Of a stretch of DNA of 64,000 nt, positions 1,522 to 48,250 are shown one piece after another. The notes below the pieces were generated by a model. That model worked only from the letters and a program-made list of their open reading frames with translations. It searched no databases and was not told the DNA's origin. The DNA is taken from sequence record PZ386957.1; one strand, 5' to 3'. Numbering within the stretch: the stretch's first letter is position 1; each line of letters starts with the position of its first letter. The DNA is from a phage. Both the position numbers and the translations under genes were made by a program.

Positions 1522-2032
1522 ATTTGATTAGATCATCACATTGCTTACGTAGTTTATATTTGTATTCTTTAGAACGTAGCATTTGTACTTTTTCATAATC
1601 TCCTTCCTGAAATGCAGACGAGAGATCATCTTGATATGCTGCCTCCGTTCCAATAACACACATACCAAATTTACGACGTTGATCCGCTTCTTCCATAGCT
1701 TTGCGGTTCATTTCTTCAATTGAATTTTCACGACCATAATAATATTCGTAAATGCGTTTCTTCTCTGCTTCTTTATCGGCTTTAATCTTTGCGATCTGTT
1801 CTGCTGATTCCGGCTGACGGCCTAAACGCTGTAATGCCGCATCTTTCTTTTCAAGATAGTTAATCACGCAATCTTCAACACTATTGAATGGAAAACGTGG
1901 TTCTTGCTGCCATCGTGCACATGAGCGTGCAAACTCTTGTGTATTCTTAGATGCAAGTGCCAGGTCATGCACAGCGCACCCATTAAGCATAGCCACTAAA
2001 GCCGCAAGACCAATCAGTTTAATCATTTTCAT
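1520..2032 (-). CDS. putative lipoprotein
   Basis: N-terminal signal peptide MKMIKLIGLAALVAMLNGC with lipobox-like Cys; 170 aa. Confidence 0.5.
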   Translation of the reverse strand: MKMIKLIGLAALVAMLNGCAVHDLALASKNTQEFARSCARWQQEPRFPFNSVEDCVINYLEKKDAALQRLGRQPESAEQIAKIKADKEAEKKRIYEYYYGRENSIEEMNRKAMEEADQRRKFGMCVIGTEAAYQDDLSSAFQEGDYEKVQMLRSKEYKYKLRKQCDDLIK

Positions 2033-2853
2033 TTAGTCACCTCACCGAAAATTGTAAATTGTCTACGATTCTCATCACCGAAAGATTCTACTACGTCGTT
2101 TACCTTGATGCAAGTCCCACGCGGTAAAATTACTTCACATTCGCAAGGGTTCCATGCAATCGACCCAACAACAAAACCTTTATGATCTTTTACATCAATC
2201 ACCCACGAAACATTACAAGAATGTTGCATCTTTCCGGTCATTGATTCATATCGATTTTCGCAATAAAGGCTAGTGCTATTTGAAAGCCAGCCTCCAAAGA
2301 TGATCGGTGTCATGCTGGTAGATACAAAGTTTTTAAAGGTAAATTCCTTATCTTCAATAATACGCTCTATTGTCTGAATGTCAAGATGTTGACCGCGATA
2401 AAGAGTACCGTTTAACTTTTCGGTTTTATCCATGACACAATCCATCAAATCAACCATTTCTGATATTTCGTCGGTCATGTCTTCTTCCCCTAAGAGAGCA
2501 CCATTTACCCATTCGTAATGCTCGGAGATATAATCGCAGATCGCATCATACTCGGCTGGGGTAAGATTGGTGTGTCCATAATGTTTGAATACACTATCTC
2601 CGAAGTCTTCGGATTGTACTTCGTACATGACATTAATGATCTTCTTGACAAATCCATAATCTTGTGTTTCTCGCTCAAGAAAACGGATAACCTTAACGTA
2701 ATCATCAAAGTTAATATGATCGCTGATCATCTCAGTGATCATGTAACCATTAATACCCTCAATGTCATATGTTTCAATATAATTGTCCATACGTTCCATC
2801 ATGGTTTCGCGTGCTTCTTCTGAAAGACGAAAACCCTGTAATTGTTTGAACAT
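2029..2853 (-). CDS. ADP-ribosyltransferase, Alt-like paralog (R-S-E type)
   Basis: ART triad visible: YRG ... FKNFVSTS ... PCECEVILP; same motifs as the adjacent Alt. Confidence 0.7.
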   Translation of the reverse strand: MFKQLQGFRLSEEARETMMERMDNYIETYDIEGINGYMITEMISDHINFDDYVKVIRFLERETQDYGFVKKIINVMYEVQSEDFGDSVFKHYGHTNLTPAEYDAICDYISEHYEWVNGALLGEEDMTDEISEMVDLMDCVMDKTEKLNGTLYRGQHLDIQTIERIIEDKEFTFKNFVSTSMTPIIFGGWLSNSTSLYCENRYESMTGKMQHSCNVSWVIDVKDHKGFVVGSIAWNPCECEVILPRGTCIKVNDVVESFGDENRRQFTIFGEVTK

Positions 2854-2931
2854 TTTAAACCTCCCATATAACAGAAAACGGGGCTAGTATAAAACTAGTC
2901 CCCGTTTGAGTCAACCATTATTTCTTAAAAA

Positions 2932-4983
2932 TTACATTTTAAATTTATCTGGCATTGCGTCTACAGATACCAGATCAGCAATAAGCTGGCGTAGAGTTGC
3001 TTTGTCTGCTTTCTTGCGTTCTGTCTTAGCTTCGGTAATAAAGCTGGAGAAAGACAGGTCAGAAGCAGGTTTAACAACACCTTCACGGATGAATGCATCA
3101 CCGTCCGCGATCATCTCGCCAGATTCTTGTAATGCTGCCAGTTCATTTTTGGTCATAATATGTGCCTCAATGTAATAAGTTTCTTGTGAATCCGTCGATG
3201 CCGTAGCACGAGTTACCGTATCAAAGGATAACACAACACCGCGAGGAAGTAAAATCTCGCATTCTTTGTAAGCAAATGCTTTGTTACCTACTGGCAATAC
3301 AGGGATGTTTTCCGCGCCAGCAATGGAGAAAGCAACATTAGCGCCACCTTCACCGCGAGATCCAGCCATAGAATCAACACCAGCAACGGCACTAGCCACG
3401 TTTGCATTCCAGCCACCAAAGATATTAGGTGCAAGGGATGTGCTCACATAGTTTTTAAAGTAAAACGCTTTTTGCTTACGTGCAGTTTCCCACATTTGCG
3501 ACCGGAAGTCCATACCACGATACAGAATAGTACCCGGATCAAGTTTAACTCCATAGTTAGCGAAGGCATTATCCAGTGCATCACACATCTTGACCAATTC
3601 TTCTGGATCTGCTACACCTTCAAACTCTTCCAGTTTTCGATCTGTCAGGAAGTTGTTCATGTTAATGTATGCTGCATCGGCGTATTCGCTTAATACAAAA
3701 CCTTCCGCACCTGGTAGGTCAAGATCAATATCTGCCATCATTTCACCCATGTTGCTAGCAATTGCTTCAAACATACCGGAAGCAACATTACGCAGGGCAT
3801 CGGTTTTAATCTGGGTGATATGACTACGCAGCATTTCAGCTTTTATGTCTGCTGGCATAGCCGGATCTACTCGGTCCATTGCAAGGGCAGTGATCTTGTT
3901 TTCGAATACTTCCTCGCTCATGATTTCTTTTAAGCGTTTAATTGATGCCGCGATAACTTCCGCAGACAACGGATCATATTGGTCCTGAACTTTTACCAGT
4001 TCACTTACTGCGTATTTTGCATCGGCTTCGCTTTCAAAGATAGTACGCATAAAGCCATAGCGAGTGATAATATCACTTGTCCAGTCATTCAAAGAACGGG
4101 CGGTTGAACGTTCTAAGGCTTGACGATCGATCAGAGTATTAAACTGTTTCTTCGGTTCCGCTTCGGTAATGTCTTCTTCCGGTTTAAGATTAATTTTTTC
4201 TGGATGATTGACATAATCACCGTTATATGTCGCTTGAGTTTTCAGCATTTCTTCTTTAGTCAAACGAGATTTAGCCGCTACGCGTTGTTCCGCTTCCGCG
4301 TTTCGTTCTTCTTCTGCTGCAAGGCTAGCCGCATATGCTTCATCTTTAGTAAGAGATTCGCCAGTAGCTTTAGATACCCAGCGATCACCTAAATCACTTT
4401 CTACTTTAGTGAACAAGGACTCATCCAGTTTAATCCCTTTAATCTTATCAATCGCCATCCCTCGACGCTTGACAACAACTAAAGCGATCTTTTTGCTGGT
4501 CATTACTTCCTGCTGGAATACTTCAAACTTCGGAGTACGACGCACTAAACGCTCTATAACTCGTTTAACCAGTTCGGTCTTGCCTTTCATACGGGAAACA
4601 TTAAAACGGAACATAACAGCGTCTAATTGAGCTTTACGGGCGGTTTCCATCACCACATCAAAAGCACTTGCCATAACAGCAATCGGGTTATCGCCTAGAC
4701 CATTTTTAAGCTGTACAATTCGACCGCTTTTATTCATCTCACACAGGACCACATGCGCGGTTTTATCACCCACGCGAATAATTTTAGGTGTTTTGTTGGT
4801 GAAGTTGCAAAGACGAACAATCACATCTTTATCGCGTGTCTGTACTGCAAAAAGCTGTTTTGGGTTCTGCTTCGGCTTTAGGCACTGTACAGGGGCAATG
4901 CTACCAAAGTTTTCTTCCTCTTCTGTTAACAGCCATTTCTCAAAAGATTCAATCATTAGATCGTCGATTTCTAAGTTAAACAT
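2932..4983 (-). CDS. alt: ADP-ribosyltransferase Alt (packaged, modifies host RNA polymerase)
   Basis: 683 aa (T4 Alt 682 aa); C-terminal ART motifs YRGMDF / YVSTSL / KECEILLP; located after gene 54 as in T4. Confidence 0.85.
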   Translation of the reverse strand: MFNLEIDDLMIESFEKWLLTEEEENFGSIAPVQCLKPKQNPKQLFAVQTRDKDVIVRLCNFTNKTPKIIRVGDKTAHVVLCEMNKSGRIVQLKNGLGDNPIAVMASAFDVVMETARKAQLDAVMFRFNVSRMKGKTELVKRVIERLVRRTPKFEVFQQEVMTSKKIALVVVKRRGMAIDKIKGIKLDESLFTKVESDLGDRWVSKATGESLTKDEAYAASLAAEEERNAEAEQRVAAKSRLTKEEMLKTQATYNGDYVNHPEKINLKPEEDITEAEPKKQFNTLIDRQALERSTARSLNDWTSDIITRYGFMRTIFESEADAKYAVSELVKVQDQYDPLSAEVIAASIKRLKEIMSEEVFENKITALAMDRVDPAMPADIKAEMLRSHITQIKTDALRNVASGMFEAIASNMGEMMADIDLDLPGAEGFVLSEYADAAYINMNNFLTDRKLEEFEGVADPEELVKMCDALDNAFANYGVKLDPGTILYRGMDFRSQMWETARKQKAFYFKNYVSTSLAPNIFGGWNANVASAVAGVDSMAGSRGEGGANVAFSIAGAENIPVLPVGNKAFAYKECEILLPRGVVLSFDTVTRATASTDSQETYYIEAHIMTKNELAALQESGEMIADGDAFIREGVVKPASDLSFSSFITEAKTERKKADKATLRQLIADLVSVDAMPDKFKM

Positions 4984-5047
4984 TTTATATCCTCTAGTTG
5001 ATAACCTATAAACCTATATTTATGAAAAAGGGGCTTTACGCCCCATT

Positions 5048-5225: not shown

Positions 5226-5257
5226 GTTTGATTCTCCTTTCGTTTCGGTATGTGTGC

Positions 5258-5286
5258 ATTATAGGGGATCGGTGATCCCCTGTCAA
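5258..5286 (-). promoter_or_regulatory. sigma70-type early promoter with palindromic spacer (TTGACA-GGGGATCaccGATCCCC-TATAAT)
   Basis: Perfect -35 and -10 hexamers separated by a 17-nt spacer that is an inverted repeat containing two GATC sites. Confidence 0.75.
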
Positions 5287-5293
5287 CAACTTT

Positions 5294-5848
5294 TTAGTTA
5301 TTTTTTAATTGCTCATCTTGCAATAATGCAATCACATGCTGGCGATGTTCTTCCGATTGAGGCACACCGAAAAAGTTTGTTTTGTAGAAATATTCTAATC
5401 GATCTTCTCGTGTGCTCTCTTCCATCATGATAGCTGGTAGACCAAGATTGCGAAAACGTCGCTTTTCTGCTGGCGTAAAATCGCTGTAATACAACATAGA
5501 ATCATCATTACCAGCAATGCTAAACTCATCCTTCATGAAAGAGAATATTGCGTTTAAACGCTGTTTACCGTCCACGATTTCGATCTCATAGCGAGAGCCA
5601 TCATCAATCTTAGCCATTGCGATAGCGCCTACCGGAAAATCATTAATAAGGTTTTCGACAAACATGCGTTTGTTTTCTGTATTCCATACCAACTCACGCT
5701 GATAATCTGGGTTCATGTTGATATAGCCATCTTCTAACCATGCCTCATAGACAGAGATGACAAAGTTTTTAGTATTGGTATAGTAACGGCGTTTAGGCGT
5801 TAAACGGTTCATATTATAGTCTCCTGAATGGATCATCACGTAGGTCAA
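5294..5848 (-). CDS. DUF262 / ParB-like NTPase-nuclease domain protein
   Basis: Motifs NPDYQRELVW ... FPVGAIAMAKIDDGSRYEIEIVDGKQRL match the ParB/Srx-fold DUF262 signature (DGQQR-type). Confidence 0.55.
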   Translation of the reverse strand: MTYVMIHSGDYNMNRLTPKRRYYTNTKNFVISVYEAWLEDGYINMNPDYQRELVWNTENKRMFVENLINDFPVGAIAMAKIDDGSRYEIEIVDGKQRLNAIFSFMKDEFSIAGNDDSMLYYSDFTPAEKRRFRNLGLPAIMMEESTREDRLEYFYKTNFFGVPQSEEHRQHVIALLQDEQLKNN

Positions 5849-6146
5849 TATCTTTTAAGAACTCATCCCATGAATGCCGGATATTGTTCTTAGTTCTCCA
5901 GATAAGAGCAGGAATCGAACGCTCTCCCATCTGGAAGTAAGGATCATATGATCCATATGCCCAATATGCTACTACAATTCCACAATCAGCGCAATAGTAT
6001 TCTATTTCACTTGCTGGCGACCAAAGACCATCAATATGATCGGTGATCTTGCTTTCGATGTTATGGCTATGACAATCAGGGCAACGGATGCAATGACCTT
6101 GTTTATCGTAATTTGACGTTAGCGAATACTTGAATAATCTCATCAT
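5814..6146 (-). CDS. small zinc-finger protein
   Basis: CIRCPDCHSH ... CADCG cysteine pairs; 110 aa. Confidence 0.4.
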   Translation of the reverse strand: MMRLFKYSLTSNYDKQGHCIRCPDCHSHNIESKITDHIDGLWSPASEIEYYCADCGIVVAYWAYGSYDPYFQMGERSIPALIWRTKNNIRHSWDEFLKDIDLRDDPFRRL

Positions 6147-6859
6147 AGATCCTTATTGGCTTCAAATACTGCCTTTGCAAATCCGCGCGGGGTAAGTGAC
6201 CGGATAGTCTTTGTTCTGGTTCCTTTCCCGCCTAGCTTAGAATGCTGTTTACTGTACCCTTTCTCAATTGGTATCGGTTTCTTTTCTGGCATTATAAAGC
6301 CTTGTCCAGTCCATAGGCAAGTCTTTTTAGGATACATGTCACGGGCGGCGATATAATCAGGGAAGGTCGGATGTATATCATCTTCCGGTAAATATCCGCC
6401 ATATTCCCACGGGTGGAACATATAATCGGGTTTACGCCACATGCTAGAGATAACGCTTACAGGATTCTCTATCATGTAGGGAACGCCCAACCATTCGCCC
6501 AAATAAGCCGATATTTTCGCTGTTTGTACATCTCTGTGTTGAATGAGTGGACCTAGAGTTTTTCTCTTACGTTCAAAGTGTGCAGCACCACTAACCGCTA
6601 AATTTGAACAGCTAGGAAATGCAAAAATCATATCCGGTTTGCCCCATTCAAGATCCATTGCTCTTTCTAGCCAATCCAAATCAATCCAGGTGTTTACATA
6701 GGTAATGTTTGGATGCTCAAATCGGGTATTATACTTTTTGTATGTACCGTGGTCGCCATCGTCAGCATTAAAGCAGATCACCTTATGACCTGCTTTAGCC
6801 CATTCTAGCCCCATTATCCCCGATCCGTCAAAGTTGCAGAATATTAATTTTTGTTTCAC
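6143..6859 (-). CDS. minimal C5-cytosine methyltransferase-like protein (no obvious target-recognition domain)
   Basis: Motif I-like FCNFDGSGIMG, motif IV-like FPSCSNLAVSG (P-S-C instead of P-C-Q), motif VI-like MIENPVSV, with canonical spacing; only 238 aa. Confidence 0.4.
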   Translation of the reverse strand: MKQKLIFCNFDGSGIMGLEWAKAGHKVICFNADDGDHGTYKKYNTRFEHPNITYVNTWIDLDWLERAMDLEWGKPDMIFAFPSCSNLAVSGAAHFERKRKTLGPLIQHRDVQTAKISAYLGEWLGVPYMIENPVSVISSMWRKPDYMFHPWEYGGYLPEDDIHPTFPDYIAARDMYPKKTCLWTGQGFIMPEKKPIPIEKGYSKQHSKLGGKGTRTKTIRSLTPRGFAKAVFEANKDL

Positions 6860-7107
6860 GCTGCCCCCATTGGTTTGATAGTAACAGAATCTAAAAGACC
6901 TTTGTTAGCCAGTTCGCGGCAAGTTTTCAGATCCGCAACTTCCCAGCCAGCCGCAATCAGATTATCGATGAGGCTGTTAGCAACGTATTCGCTCATGAAA
7001 GAGCACTGTTTGCCGATGGTGTAGCGTACACGCTGTAATTTAAGTTTACGGAAGCCTTTAACGTTCAGGTCTTTAGCGATTTTCTTTGCGGTTTCGATGT
7101 TAGCCAT
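6856..7107 (-). CDS. hypothetical early protein
   Basis: 83 aa ORF with SD and upstream early promoter cassette (palindromic spacer). Confidence 0.45.
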   Translation of the reverse strand: MANIETAKKIAKDLNVKGFRKLKLQRVRYTIGKQCSFMSEYVANSLIDNLIAAGWEVADLKTCRELANKGLLDSVTIKPMGAA

Positions 7108-7147: not shown

Positions 7148-7176
7148 ATTATAGGGGATCTCCCGATCCCCGTCAA
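7148..7176 (-). promoter_or_regulatory. early promoter with palindromic spacer (TTGACG-GGGGATCgggaGATCCCC-TATAAT)
   Basis: Same architecture, upstream of ORF 6856..7107. Confidence 0.7.
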
Positions 7177-9166: not shown

Positions 9167-9460
9167 TTATAAAATAATTTTTTGATATTTTTCTATGATG
9201 TTTGTGTAGGTCACGTCAACCGCTAGCACCGTTGCTTCGAATCCACCGTTTAACCAATGGCTATGATCATGGTCGTGAAAGAAACCTAGACCAGTACGAA
9301 GACCTTCTTTATATTCTGCGCGTACATTCAGTTTGTCGTCGATAAACAGATAAAACCATGAATTTTTACTAGGATTGATGATACAACCTTTCAGATTAGG
9401 GAGAATATCACGACTAAGAATAAACTTATCACCTACTTTGAACATAATATTAGTCCTCAC
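9167..9460 (-). CDS. H-x-H-W family small protein (paralog 2)
   Basis: ...HDHDHSHWL...VLAVDVT... Confidence 0.5.
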   Translation of the reverse strand: MRTNIMFKVGDKFILSRDILPNLKGCIINPSKNSWFYLFIDDKLNVRAEYKEGLRTGLGFFHDHDHSHWLNGGFEATVLAVDVTYTNIIEKYQKIIL

Positions 9461-9770
9461 TTATAAGGTCAAACCAATTGTTTTTCGCATAATGCTTAAT
9501 GCGTGCTTGATCTGCTTCCGATGGTGATAGATTCCATGCAACCACTACAACTTCTGACGCATCGTCATCCGTTTCTGATACCCAATGATTGTGATTCATA
9601 CAGTTATTTGCTATCGAGTGAGCAAATGATTTCATCACTGGAGACGTATAATCATAGTAACGGATTTTCAGATTTTCATCAACGTACAAATAGATCGTAT
9701 AAGGTTTATATTCAGTAACCAGTAACAGACAGTTACGCAATTCTGGGAAAATATTTTTAGTTAATTTCAT
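9450..9770 (-). CDS. H-x-H-W family small protein (paralog 3, divergent)
   Basis: ...NHNHWVSE...VVVVAWNLSPSEADQ... Confidence 0.45.
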   Translation of the reverse strand: MKLTKNIFPELRNCLLLVTEYKPYTIYLYVDENLKIRYYDYTSPVMKSFAHSIANNCMNHNHWVSETDDDASEVVVVAWNLSPSEADQARIKHYAKNNWFDLISED

Positions 9771-9984
9771 ATTCTAGTTCTCCGTAATACACGGTAATCC
9801 ATTTTTCTTCATACTTTGTATCTTTCCAACACACAATCCCGTTTACTGTGCAATCTTTGGAATTGACGAATGATTCATATTGTTCTGCATCTTCCATCAT
9901 TGCATGAGCGGTCTTTTCATCGAATATATCGCAGATCGCTTTATATGCTCGATAATCTTTAAATTTGCTCATAATTAAGACCAC
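9757..9984 (-). CDS. hypothetical small protein, tandem duplicate A
   Basis: MSKFKDYRAYKAICDIF...; near-identical N-terminus to the next ORF. Confidence 0.45.
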   Translation of the reverse strand: MVLIMSKFKDYRAYKAICDIFDEKTAHAMMEDAEQYESFVNSKDCTVNGIVCWKDTKYEEKWITVYYGELEYEIN

Positions 9985-10184
9985 TCAAGAGTTTTTGAAA
10001 ACACATCTATCCATTGTTGAGTATATGCGGTTTCTTTCCATGATACAATACCAGTCGAATAATGGTTTTTGTTTCCAGAAAAGGACGGGCATTTTGAGGC
10101 ATCTTCCATCATCTTTTCGGCGAACTCTGGTTCGTATACTCGCAAGATCTGTTGATATGCTTTATAATCTTTAAATTTGCTCAT
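9975..10184 (-). CDS. hypothetical small protein, tandem duplicate B
   Basis: MSKFKDYKAYQQILRVY...MMEDA...; paralog of 9757..9984. Confidence 0.45.
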   Translation of the reverse strand: MSKFKDYKAYQQILRVYEPEFAEKMMEDASKCPSFSGNKNHYSTGIVSWKETAYTQQWIDVFSKTLEWS

Positions 10185-10907: not shown

Positions 10908-10936
10908 ATTATAGGGGATCACCGATCCCCTGTCAA
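10908..10936 (-). promoter_or_regulatory. early promoter with palindromic spacer (TTGACA-GGGGATCggtGATCCCC-TATAAT)
   Basis: Upstream of ORF 10706..10873. Confidence 0.7.
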
Positions 10937-11860: not shown

Positions 11861-11889
11861 AGTATAGGGGATCGGTGATCCCCTGTCAA
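11861..11889 (-). promoter_or_regulatory. early promoter with palindromic spacer (TTGACA-GGGGATCaccGATCCCC-TATACT)
   Basis: Upstream of ORF 11647..11826. Confidence 0.7.
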
Positions 11890-48031: not shown

Positions 48032-48250
48032 TTAAATTTCTTCTACAGTAAAGTCTTCAATGTTGTTGTGCTCGGAGAACGTTGCCAGACCAGCATCCCA
48101 CGCATCATCCTCAGAGAAGAATACACCATAACGTTCATATCCTTTAGCGCCTTCAAATTTAACCATTAATTTGTGAGTATGTTTCATTTTGATTCTCCTT
48201 CGTTGTCTTGATGAGTTCATTGTAGGGGATCGGCGATCCCCTGTCAACAA
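48032..48250 (-). CDS. hypothetical small protein
   Basis: 72 aa ORF with promoter cassette upstream. Confidence 0.35.
   Translation of the reverse strand: MLTGDRRSPTMNSSRQRRRIKMKHTHKLMVKFEGAKGYERYGVFFSEDDAWDAGLATFSEHNNIEDFTVEEI
48219..48247 (-). promoter_or_regulatory. early promoter with palindromic spacer (TTGACA-GGGGATCgccGATCCCC-TACAAT)
   Basis: Upstream of ORF 48032..48250. Confidence 0.7.

Follow-up and report, generated by a model that had tools for sequence, protein, structure and literature searches.

An early accessory module in a Krischvirus phage probably combines an orphan Dcm-like methyltransferase with a minimal stand-alone DUF262 protein

The Dcm protein of phage K42, a member of the Drexlerviridae, places 5mC on DNA at CCWGG, as shown by LC-MS, and triggers retron Ec86, and its C82A/E128A/K175A/K176A mutant is inactive. 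Similarly, DNA of Pantoea phage AAS23 displays a Dcm-type restriction pattern. Like the Dcm of K42 and KarlJaspers (Bas06), the Krischvirus protein described below is an orphan, and in neither case do the annotated flanks show an adjoining cognate nuclease gene. DUF262 proteins occur in several defense systems. GmrSD/BrxU and SspE carry an N-terminal DUF262 domain of the ParB/Srx fold, while Menshen NsnA, PD-T4-2 A, and ECOR17 GmrS1 lack a nuclease of their own, measure 360-385 aa by profile length, and adjoin partner genes; for instance, NsnA possesses an additional C-terminal ParBDB DNA-binding domain and adjoins NsnB/NsnC. Proteins resembling both kinds are encoded in one operon of the phage DNA described here.

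The window, the whole 64-kb stretch of DNA analyzed, was assigned to Krischvirus (RB49-like T4-type phages; nucleotide identity ~93%). Four of its minus-strand genes constitute a single operon flanked by two early promoter cassettes (Table 1) of the PeSL type reported from RB49/phi1 (PMC2839356). The cassette at the operon head includes the inverted repeat GGGGATC..GATCCCC, and the cassette at the other end drives a 59-aa ORF at 5225-5046. The genes are tightly packed: the TGA stop of the 83-aa ORF and the GTG start of the methyltransferase share GTGA, and the methyltransferase stop and the ATG of the zinc-ribbon gene share ATGA. The zinc-ribbon protein itself matches Zn_Ribbon_TF weakly, under the Pfam cut-off. 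The original prediction had started the DUF262 gene at 5848; that TTG falls within the preceding gene and makes the product 12 codons too long, the most likely start being the ATG at 5812, which is preceded by AGGAG and yields 172 aa, matching the RB49 annotation. The methyltransferase gene, earlier placed two genes downstream, lies upstream of the DUF262 gene by direction of transcription.

Table 1. Features of the early operon and its bordering promoters (positions in the window)
Feature	Position	Strand	Evidence and remarks
Early sigma-70-type promoter, PeSL cassette with spacer stem-loop	7148..7176	-	TTGACG-17-TATAAT, promoter scan 11/12; operon head
83-aa ORF, first gene of the operon	6856..7107	-	ORF list; phrog_14908 match 6e-58
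238-aa probable Dcm-like orphan C5-cytosine DNA methyltransferase, RB49p189 orthologue	6143..6859	-	
110-aa four-cysteine zinc-ribbon protein, RB49p188 orthologue	5814..6146	-	phrog_2993 match 1.9e-33
172-aa single-domain DUF262 (ParB/Srx fold) protein, RB49p187 orthologue	5294..5812	-	
Second PeSL early promoter	5258..5286	-	TTGACA-17-TATAAT, 12/12; end of the module

RB49p187, RB49p188, and RB49p189, together with their orthologues in ~57 Krischvirus genomes, show the same order within a PeSL-bounded hyperplastic region adjoining alt. Protein identity to these orthologues is 97-98% for DUF262, 97-99% for the zinc ribbon, and 91-94.5% for the methyltransferase. Unlike RB49, the window lacks RB49p185 and RB49p189.1 and carries an FPSC methyltransferase allele. 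We consider it likely that the region is an early accessory module of unlinked genes, among them an orphan Dcm-like methyltransferase and a minimal stand-alone DUF262 switch. It probably represents one early-transcribed unit with two mobile promoter/stem-loop cassettes as its borders, whose four small genes would each have been acquired independently. Both of these genes are ordinary and were mostly annotated before, and the methyltransferase family has a characterized active member; to this extent they are already known.

The C5-methyltransferase-like motifs originally proposed for the 238-aa ORF are all present in canonical order: FCNFDGSGIMG (motif I), FPSCSNLAVSG (motif IV), and MIENPVSV (motif VI). 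In a profile search, the protein matched PHROG 757, a family present in 1519 phage records, with an E-value of 1e-88 over residues 1-237. Its homologues number 5283, and the 120 listed are all 219-259 aa long, whereas the bacterial enzymes M.HhaI, M.HaeIII, and E. coli Dcm are ~90-230 residues longer than the window protein. The suggested profile checks gave a divided answer, positive with PF03235 for the DUF262 ORF and, with PF00145, negative for the methyltransferase itself (no match at E<=1) and positive for its relatives, 29 of 39 of which matched at E<=1. One of these (P0003) scored 28.5 bits (cut-off, 22), with an alignment over motifs I-IV only; likeness to PF00145 is confined to these motifs, and the window protein stays below threshold. 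Searches of Pfam and NCBIfam returned no match for the 238-aa protein, and direct sequence searches against the PDB yielded nothing useful for either this or the DUF262 protein, so that useful information came only from the family profiles and the structure models. Motif I aligned weakly with that of M.HaeIII in a profile search (E 0.88), and the structure model has the fold of a C5-methyltransferase catalytic domain, its best matches being DNMT3B and bacterial C5-methyltransferases and its top structural matches DNA enzymes.

Among the 39 relatives, G12, S13, and G14 of motif I (FDGSG), Cys84 of motif IV (FPSC), and E131, N132, and P133 of motif VI (ENP, where E-N-V is typical) are invariant, as are R142, K178, and numerous positions between 150 and 225; the protein also has a C-terminal IRSLTPRG helix. 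The claim that the protein has no target-recognition domain (TRD) goes too far, although this part is reduced relative to canonical C5-methyltransferases (PF00145; the DNMT3A/3B catalytic domain). An insert of only ~60 residues (150-213) occupies the usual TRD place between motifs VIII and IX; it is highly conserved, with Y156, L157, P164, I170, D174, Y176, K178, T180, W183, F188, P191, and G210 invariant, and it includes the KK pair, which has been given a role in substrate binding in the K42 study. Among krischviruses, the methyltransferase gene evolves with a dN/dS of 0.04-0.11.

The comparison with K42 Dcm was made through KarlJaspers Dcm (711 bp), which serves as a proxy since the two phages are 95.4% identical and the genes equal in length. 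It belongs to the same family as the window protein (236 vs 238 aa) and shows 55% identity over the full length (E 6e-91). The residues altered in the inactive mutant, C82, E128, K175, and K176, align with the invariant C84, E131, K178, and K179, that is, with the catalytic Cys, the Glu of ENP, and the KK pair. The small or non-canonical substrate once suggested is therefore not needed, since a 55%-identical homologue puts 5mC on DNA. We regard the 238-aa protein as probably a DNA methyltransferase in compact form, whose small putative recognition insert is conserved, its activity being read from this homologue in the literature.

The two proteins also differ. K42 and KarlJaspers are T1-type siphoviruses and the phage described here is a T4-type myovirus; motif IV is FPPC there and FPSC here; and loop 196-207 is of the NPGW type in K42/KarlJaspers and of the GYSKQH type in the window protein, so the recognition site of this subtype may differ from CCWGG. 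A literature search gave nothing specific on methylomes of the GYSKQH subtype. The window contains 28 CCWGG sites (~0.2% of its cytosines), fewer than the 49.6 +/- 6.9 expected, an under-representation that would be less expected were the phage reliably protecting CCWGG. RB49 DNA is cleavable by HpaII and NheI, and TB34 DNA appears canonical by HPLC, with no modified nucleoside by HPLC/MS; together with the small number of sites, these reports fit site-specific rather than global methylation. A further point against our reading is that RB49 is routinely propagated on E. coli B, and the B-derived BL21(DE3) has retron Ec86, which senses K42 Dcm. By analogy, the enzyme would bind AdoMet via FDGSG, Cys84 would attack C6 of a flipped cytosine with the assistance of Glu131, and the compact insert around K178/K179 would read a short site, probably CCWGG or a similar one, as far as specificity can be inferred. 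Phage and host DNA would thus be marked early in infection and shielded from EcoRII-type restriction.

For the second gene, the original assignment to DUF262 was confirmed: the minus-strand ORF contains NPDYQRELVW and EIVDGKQRL, passes the PF03235 threshold (E 5.8e-19; 69.4 bits vs 33.2; profile positions 5-105 of 199), and its model has the ParB/Srx fold. The protein shares with GmrSD/BrxU and SspE the motifs QR..VW, DGxQR, and F..N..G, which appear here as YQR..VW, E..DGKQR, and F...N..GVPQS.EH, the C-terminal one being matched to BrxU through the family profile. In 53 distant relatives, each of the three nucleotide-pocket motifs is invariant. DGKQR is a variant of the gamma-phosphate motif DGQQR of BrxU, for which the literature gives the roles of the corresponding residues; Q84 is invariant, and D81, G82, K83, and R85 are each kept in at least 90% of these relatives. 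The domain presumably binds or hydrolyzes NTP, as suggested by the conserved motifs and the literature on BrxU and SspE. The DUF262 gene has a dN/dS of 0.05-0.14 among krischviruses.

In contrast to GmrSD/BrxU and SspE, the window protein is phage-encoded rather than part of a defense island and has neither a DUF1524/HNH nuclease nor a linker, and its domain measures 172 residues against ~250 in BrxU. The predicted absence of a DUF1524 partner was borne out in the protein itself and in the scanned zinc-ribbon, 83-aa, and 59-aa neighbors, where no ATPase or nuclease domain was found either; thus, the protein is not a GmrSD enzyme, the nuclease domain being neither fused to it nor present in the scanned neighbors. 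RB49 shows the same picture, its flanking genes being annotated as hypothetical. Compared with Menshen NsnA, PD-T4-2 A, and ECOR17 GmrS1, which provide its best PADLOC matches, it is a single-domain protein with no conserved partner, and the NsnA match spans profile positions 47-187 of 385 only, the C-terminal domain being absent. We rejected a truncated GmrSD as its origin because its nearest relatives, 160-185 aa in length, are complete proteins themselves, all seven krischvirus copies compared are 172 aa, and residue 172 is followed by a 69-nt spacer holding a promoter. The relatives number 6279; the family is present in 329 phage records and has thousands of metagenomic relatives. Relatives of 260-290 aa have an N-terminal extension in which no Pfam domain was found. 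Stand-alone DUF262 proteins occur in T4-type phages with unmodified cytosine, such as RB49, in other T4-type phages, such as RB16 and KP27, and in early operons of temperate phages. The 172-aa protein may be a minimal stand-alone ParB/Srx switch that binds or hydrolyzes nucleotides, and it would work at DNA or close to it, jointly with a partner encoded elsewhere rather than adjacently.

The genes do not form one system; they are neighbors only in Krischvirus. The methyltransferase, zinc-ribbon, and DUF262 families differ in their phage distributions and co-occur only in this genus, so a functional link is not supported. A conserved three-gene module was rejected on the basis of these unlike distributions and of unrelated neighborhoods in RB16, KP27, ST64B, a Serratia prophage, a metagenomic prophage-like contig, JenK1, AugustePiccard, and KarlJaspers. 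For instance, tblastn located the zinc-ribbon protein in Krischvirus, Nonagvirus, and Felixounavirus, with no adjoining methyltransferase in JenK1, and in RB16 and KP27 the DUF262 gene is preceded by one that is no homologue of the zinc-ribbon protein. RB16p029, annotated as a “DNA methyltransferase,” was dismissed as a family member, since tblastn with a threshold of 1e-3 gave no match within the first 50 kb of the RB16 genome. Within Krischvirus, hmC/glucosyl-hmC DNA has been reported for SAP, whereas TB34 is unmodified. We rejected these genes as the cause of that difference, since all three proteins are identical in both phages and the sole local difference is a 79-bp duplication of the promoter cassette.

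It is highly improbable that the 238-aa protein fails to function as a DNA methyltransferase here, whether through catalysis impaired by the Pro-to-Ser change preceding the catalytic Cys and the tiny recognition insert, or because its substrate is RNA or a small molecule. Such a reading can draw on the lack of Pfam and NCBIfam matches and on the rarity of the allele: PPC is found in 118 of the 120 listed relatives, and among seven krischvirus copies compared, FPSC occurs only in the window and phiS. However, between these two the gene shows a dS of 0.79 with a dN/dS of 0.039, which indicates strong purifying selection on the FPSC allele. The absence of a modified nucleoside from TB34 DNA also speaks for a non-working enzyme, but bulk HPLC would miss site-specific methylation affecting ~0.2% of cytosines. 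The homologue methylates DNA in vivo, the four key residues are kept, and the best structural matches are DNA enzymes, all of which argue against this reading.

Two alternatives to a stand-alone switch concern the DUF262 protein. It is unlikely to be the sensor half of an exclusion or defense system that detects foreign DNA, perhaps modified, from competing phages, with a nuclease/ATPase partner elsewhere in the phage or host on the model of GmrS1 with GmrSD2 or NsnA with NsnB/C. The PADLOC matches to NsnA (2e-20) and PD-T4-2_A (1e-12) point in this direction but are limited to the DUF262 core, and the DNA-binding domain common to the C-termini of NsnA proteins is missing. ECOR17 requires the nuclease-less GmrS1 together with GmrSD2, according to the literature, yet no conserved nuclease/ATPase neighbor was found in any context examined here. 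In favor of the sensor reading, the family is frequent in Salmonella and Serratia prophages, with one relative in a metagenomic prophage-like region, and some phage records name relatives as DefenseFinder proteins. An anti-defense role, in which a DUF262 mimic poisons or competes with host modification sensors (GmrSD/BrxU, Dazbog, Menshen, SspE) and protects 5mC-marked phage DNA, appears very unlikely. The domain is that of the N-terminal half of BrxU, which reportedly dimerizes via its DUF262 region and also cleaves 5mC DNA, but a structure-based identity of only 17% makes mixed dimers improbable. A review ties the Dazbog DUF262 to methylated-DNA recognition, and the gene shares its early transcript with that of a putative 5mC-forming enzyme; however, ST64B has the DUF262 family and no Dcm-like gene, and no methyltransferase adjoins it in RB16 or KP27. 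Relatives are also found in the early regions of temperate phage genomes, a frequent place for counter-defense genes, while the known GmrSD inhibitors Ip1-3 are described as unrelated injected proteins. The decoy or inhibitor of type IV restriction originally suggested is not supported. Finally, a passive decoy would need no nucleotide pocket, so the invariant motifs are better explained by a working protein that depends on NTP. For a broader proposal, that phage stand-alone DUF262 proteins of ~170 aa form a new nucleotide-dependent counter-defense class against BrxU/GmrSD, Dazbog, Menshen, and SspE, paired in Krischvirus with a writer of the 5mC mark those sensors detect, the case is highly doubtful.

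With both genes present in ~57 sequenced RB49-like phages and mostly annotated, the finding has small value as a discovery, and our preferred reading of a site-specific methyltransferase beside an unlinked DUF262 switch matters mainly in other respects. RB49-type DNA is widely treated as “unmodified,” yet these phages carry an apparently functional, predicted site-specific 5mC methyltransferase, which could affect restriction, sensing of the retron Ec86 type, and 5mC-sensitive type IV enzymes. The rare Pro-to-Ser allele beside the catalytic cysteine, held under purifying selection, offers a cheap test case for whether the Pro-Cys dipeptide is essential. Similarly, the widespread 170-aa stand-alone DUF262 phage family represents a reasonable target for accessory-gene screens.

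Nucleotide searches with 2.3 kb around the finding had matches in 59 phage records (90-95% identity), every one an RB49-like coliphage belonging to Krischvirus (RB49, JSE, Phi1, kaaroe, TB34, SAP, UPWr_E1 and others). Every gene of interest lies on the minus strand, and domain and PHROG searches identify the adjoining 683-aa ORF as the Alt ADP-ribosyltransferase. Beyond the RB49 entries listed in the table, other phage records label the methyltransferase "Dcm" or "putative C-5 cytosine DNA methylase," and one names its DUF262 orthologue "DUF262 domain protein." Neither gene is unusual: both belong to known families and had been annotated before. Two small ORFs of RB49 are missing from the window, RB49p185, located between alt and a 59-aa ORF, and RB49p189.1, located directly upstream of the methyltransferase gene, which is typical indel variation of the hyperplastic region.

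Gene order was read from the minus-strand sequence combined with a promoter scan. Since the ORFs overlap or abut between early-type promoters of the PeSL kind (promoter early stem-loop), the description "early accessory block" in the original prediction is fair; however, the methyltransferase gene, said there to be downstream of the DUF262 gene, is upstream in the direction of transcription, and the DUF262 ORF, given as 184 aa from 5848, most likely encodes 172 aa from a later ATG. Both promoters flanking the block have GGGGATC..GATCCCC as an inverted repeat within the spacer, and the window holds five PeSL-like cassettes, compared with none in shuffled sequences. By their sequence, these match the mobile regulatory PeSL cassettes reported in RB49 and phi1 as mediators of modular gene shuffling in hyperplastic regions (PMC2839356).

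Features of the locus and of the genomes compared with it (window coordinates unless stated)
Feature	Position	Strand	Description	RB49 record
Early-type promoter	7176-7148	minus	TTGACG-17-TATAAT	
83-aa ORF	7107-6856	minus	first ORF after promoter 7176-7148	
Methyltransferase	6859 (GTG start) to 6143	minus	GTGA overlap with stop of 83-aa ORF	RB49p189, "DNA methyltransferase," 238 aa
Four-cysteine zinc-ribbon ORF	6146-5814	minus	ATG overlaps methyltransferase stop (ATGA)	RB49p188, hypothetical, 109 aa
DUF262 ORF	5812 (ATG) to 5294 (stop)	minus	one base past zinc-ribbon ORF, behind AGGAG	RB49p187, hypothetical, 172 aa
Perfect promoter	5286-5258	minus	TTGACA-17-TATAAT, after DUF262 stop	
PeSL-like cassettes	5258-5286, 7148-7176, 10908-10936, 11861-11889, 48219-48247	all minus	GGGGATC-N3/4-GATCCCC between TTGACA and TATAAT	
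79-bp duplication	TB34 locus 1115 / SAP locus 1116-1194; window ~5226-5293		from sequence alignment	
Genes missing from window	RB49 locus 3150-3362, 5244-5489; window ~4984-5045, ~6856-6860			RB49p185, RB49p189.1
Three tandem paralogues, ~100 aa	8439-8747, 9167-9460, 9450-9770	minus	H-x-H-W motif, then V-x-A-x-D/N-(V/L) segment	
Two tandem paralogues, ~70 aa	9757-9984, 9975-10184	minus	start SKFKDY(R/K)AY	
Serratia fonticola prophage genes	prophage sequence 1576-3266		canonical 306-aa C5-methyltransferase (PF00145), then PAPS-reductase-like gene	

The methyltransferase has no Pfam or NCBIfam match and no sequence match in the PDB, but it matches PHROG 757 ("DNA methyltransferase") at 1e-88. 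More than 5000 homologues exist, the 120 listed all measuring 219-259 aa, and the family occurs in 1519 of 50,697 phage records, including Drexlerviridae, Klebsiella T1-like phages, Kagunavirus/Dhillonvirus-type siphoviruses, rV5-like and Seunavirus-like myoviruses, and Campylobacter, Vibrio and Arthrobacter phages. Its assignment as a C5-methyltransferase domain was correct: G12-S13-G14 (motif I), C84 (motif IV) and E131-N132-P133 (motif VI) are invariant in a 39-member alignment, as are R142, a dense set between 150 and 191, and a C-terminal I-R-S-L-x-x-R. The proposed PF00145 profile check gave no match for the window protein itself; 29 of the 39 members show some match (E<=1), the best reaching 28.5 bits against a cut-off of 22, over motifs I-IV only. 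Residues ~150-213 form a short, strongly conserved insert, so the claim that a target-recognition domain is absent was an overstatement. In DNMT3 enzymes the target-recognition domain is small, and this would be in keeping with such a compact architecture.

The family has a characterized member. In a study of retron Ec86, escape mutants were isolated from the Drexlerviridae phage K42 (95.4% identity to KarlJaspers, Bas06), and every one had a disrupted 711-bp "dcm" gene, whose expression was toxic only when the retron was present. LC-MS detected 5mC on the Ec86 msDNA, mutation of the msDNA CCWGG site abolished protection, and the Dcm mutant C82A/E128A/K175A/K176A was inactive. KarlJaspers carries an annotated 711-bp "Dcm-like C5 cytosine methyltransferase" that shares 55% identity with the window protein across its full length (E 6e-91), and its C82, E128, K175 and K176 align with C84, E131, K178 and K179. 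Similarly, the cytosine methyltransferase of Pantoea phage AAS23 yielded no conserved domain by BLASTP and a Dcm-like structure by HHpred, and AAS23 DNA showed a Dcm-type restriction pattern. Given these published results on K42 Dcm and AAS23, the family is a recognized class of orphan DNA methyltransferases of phages with experimental support, and a small-molecule or non-canonical substrate need not be invoked.

The window copy has peculiarities of its own. Its motif IV reads FPSCSN, where 118 of the 120 relatives listed have P-P-C; among the seven krischvirus copies that were compared, the allele recurs only in phiS, which also has the same cluster of changes at residues 99-117. Across residues 83-117, the window and phiS carry FPSCSN and ERKRKTLGPLIQHRDVQTAKI, and the other five copies FPPCTN and ERKKREQGPLIQVHDVRAAKI, which looks like a recombined segment. 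By its substitution rates, the FPSC allele is not decaying (dN/dS 0.039 at dS 0.79 against phiS); the value against RB49 is 0.11. Methyltransferase dS (0.48-0.79) is much above that of the two downstream genes (0.18-0.32). The family has two subtypes at loop 196-207, GYSKQH in the window and NPGW in K42/KarlJaspers, and because of this difference we only infer CCWGG specificity for the window copy. This Dcm/EcoRII site is rarer than expected, with 28 occurrences in the window against 49.6 +/- 6.9 in dinucleotide-preserving shuffles, 100 of 100 of which had at least 28. Since full methylation of 28 sites in 64 kb (40% G+C) would affect only ~0.2% of cytosines, a working site-specific enzyme is compatible with the cleavage of RB49 DNA by HpaII and NheI and with the canonical HPLC/MS composition of TB34 DNA.

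A 2026 paper reported hydroxymethylcytosine (hmC) and glucosylated hmC in Krischvirus SAP, but not in the 99.96%-identical TB34, with no genetic explanation. The two phages encode identical methyltransferase, zinc-ribbon and DUF262 proteins, which were rejected as the cause. Locally, they differ only by a tandem duplication of 79 bp that covers the PeSL promoter and 5' leader and lies after the DUF262 gene, before the next ORF, and by two one-base gaps in the alignment close to the ends of the locus. Both are Durham phages, and by modification profile SAP clusters with seven Tequatrovirus phages from that collection; we would guess that mixed-up samples are no less probable an explanation than a new pathway.

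The zinc-ribbon protein (CxxCxxC ... CxxC), encoded between the two genes and translationally coupled to the methyltransferase, has relatives in phage records of Krischvirus, Nonagvirus and Felixounavirus. Nonagvirus (Queuovirinae) phages modify DNA with 7-deazaguanine, and the JenK1 homologue has no methyltransferase neighbor. Further small ORFs of the region form two sets of tandem paralogues (table).

The DUF262 family occurs in 329 phage records, from T4-type phages (Krischvirus, Pseudotevenvirus RB16 and Lw1, Slopekvirus KP27, and Citrobacter, Cronobacter and Enterobacter phages) to Erwinia phages and temperate phages such as ST64B. All three genes are matched at above 90% only in the 57 Krischvirus records. 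The DUF262 gene is close to nudE in RB16 and KP27, with unrelated small ORFs around it; in ST64B and a metagenomic prophage-like region, it lies in the early-left operon between repressor and integrase; and in Serratia, it lies among phage-type genes. No homologue of the Dcm-like gene exists anywhere in the ST64B genome, and the AugustePiccard and KarlJaspers methyltransferases have no DUF262 or zinc-ribbon neighbor. Because the families differ in phage distribution and sit in unrelated neighborhoods, and the methyltransferase and DUF262 genes are found apart, the genomic evidence does not support a functional link. The Krischvirus arrangement is best explained by accretion of independent accessory genes, which PeSL cassettes would mediate. 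A canonical C5-methyltransferase gene precedes the DUF262 homologue by ~3 kb in the S. fonticola prophage; both share a strand, and several unrelated ORFs separate them. This is a single case, not seen in the other prophage.

The DUF262 domain call likewise held: the protein clearly exceeds the Pfam GmrSD_N threshold, and its structure model (pLDDT 96) matches pNOB8 ParB-N, BrxU (134 residues), PadC, SspE, KorB, sulfiredoxin and viral GmrSD_N proteins in BFVD. A profile built from 53 relatives covers the DUF262 domain of BrxU in three aligned blocks (E 2.5e-9) and also matches DndI-type and SspE proteins. As predicted for a DUF1524 partner, no nuclease domain was found in the protein or in the neighbors scanned, and it thus lacks what defines a GmrSD enzyme. 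An exhaustive HMMER search returned 6279 relatives, the closest being full-length at 160-185 aa, which rejects a truncated GmrSD and points to a genuine minimal single-domain family. Another set of relatives, 260-290 aa long, is extended at the N-terminus, and the extension contains no Pfam domain.

Across the 53 relatives, Y37-Q38-R39..W43, Q84 (in E78..D81-G82-K83-Q84-R85) and N146 are invariant, the rest of the E..DGKQR motif, F142 and G149 are kept in at least 90%, and the PQS.EH tail is conserved; these residues correspond to the DUF262 nucleotide-pocket motifs. In BrxU, hydrolysis needs Q101 and R102 of DGQQR, and nucleotide binding turns the dimer into monomers. Among krischviruses, dN/dS is 0.05-0.14. 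An anti-defense role as a decoy seems very unlikely to us, although BrxU also cuts 5mC DNA, a review ties the DUF262 of Dazbog to methylated-DNA sensing, and one type IV system requires a nuclease-less GmrS1 partner: the strictly conserved nucleotide pocket, a structure-based identity to BrxU of only 17%, and the presence of the gene in phages without the methyltransferase all speak against a passive decoy. A phage-borne sensor or exclusion function is doubtful. The remaining weight falls on a protein that, judging from conservation and its relatives, would be a functional NTP-dependent ParB/Srx protein. The role of this widespread 170-aa stand-alone DUF262 family is the only point of some remaining value.
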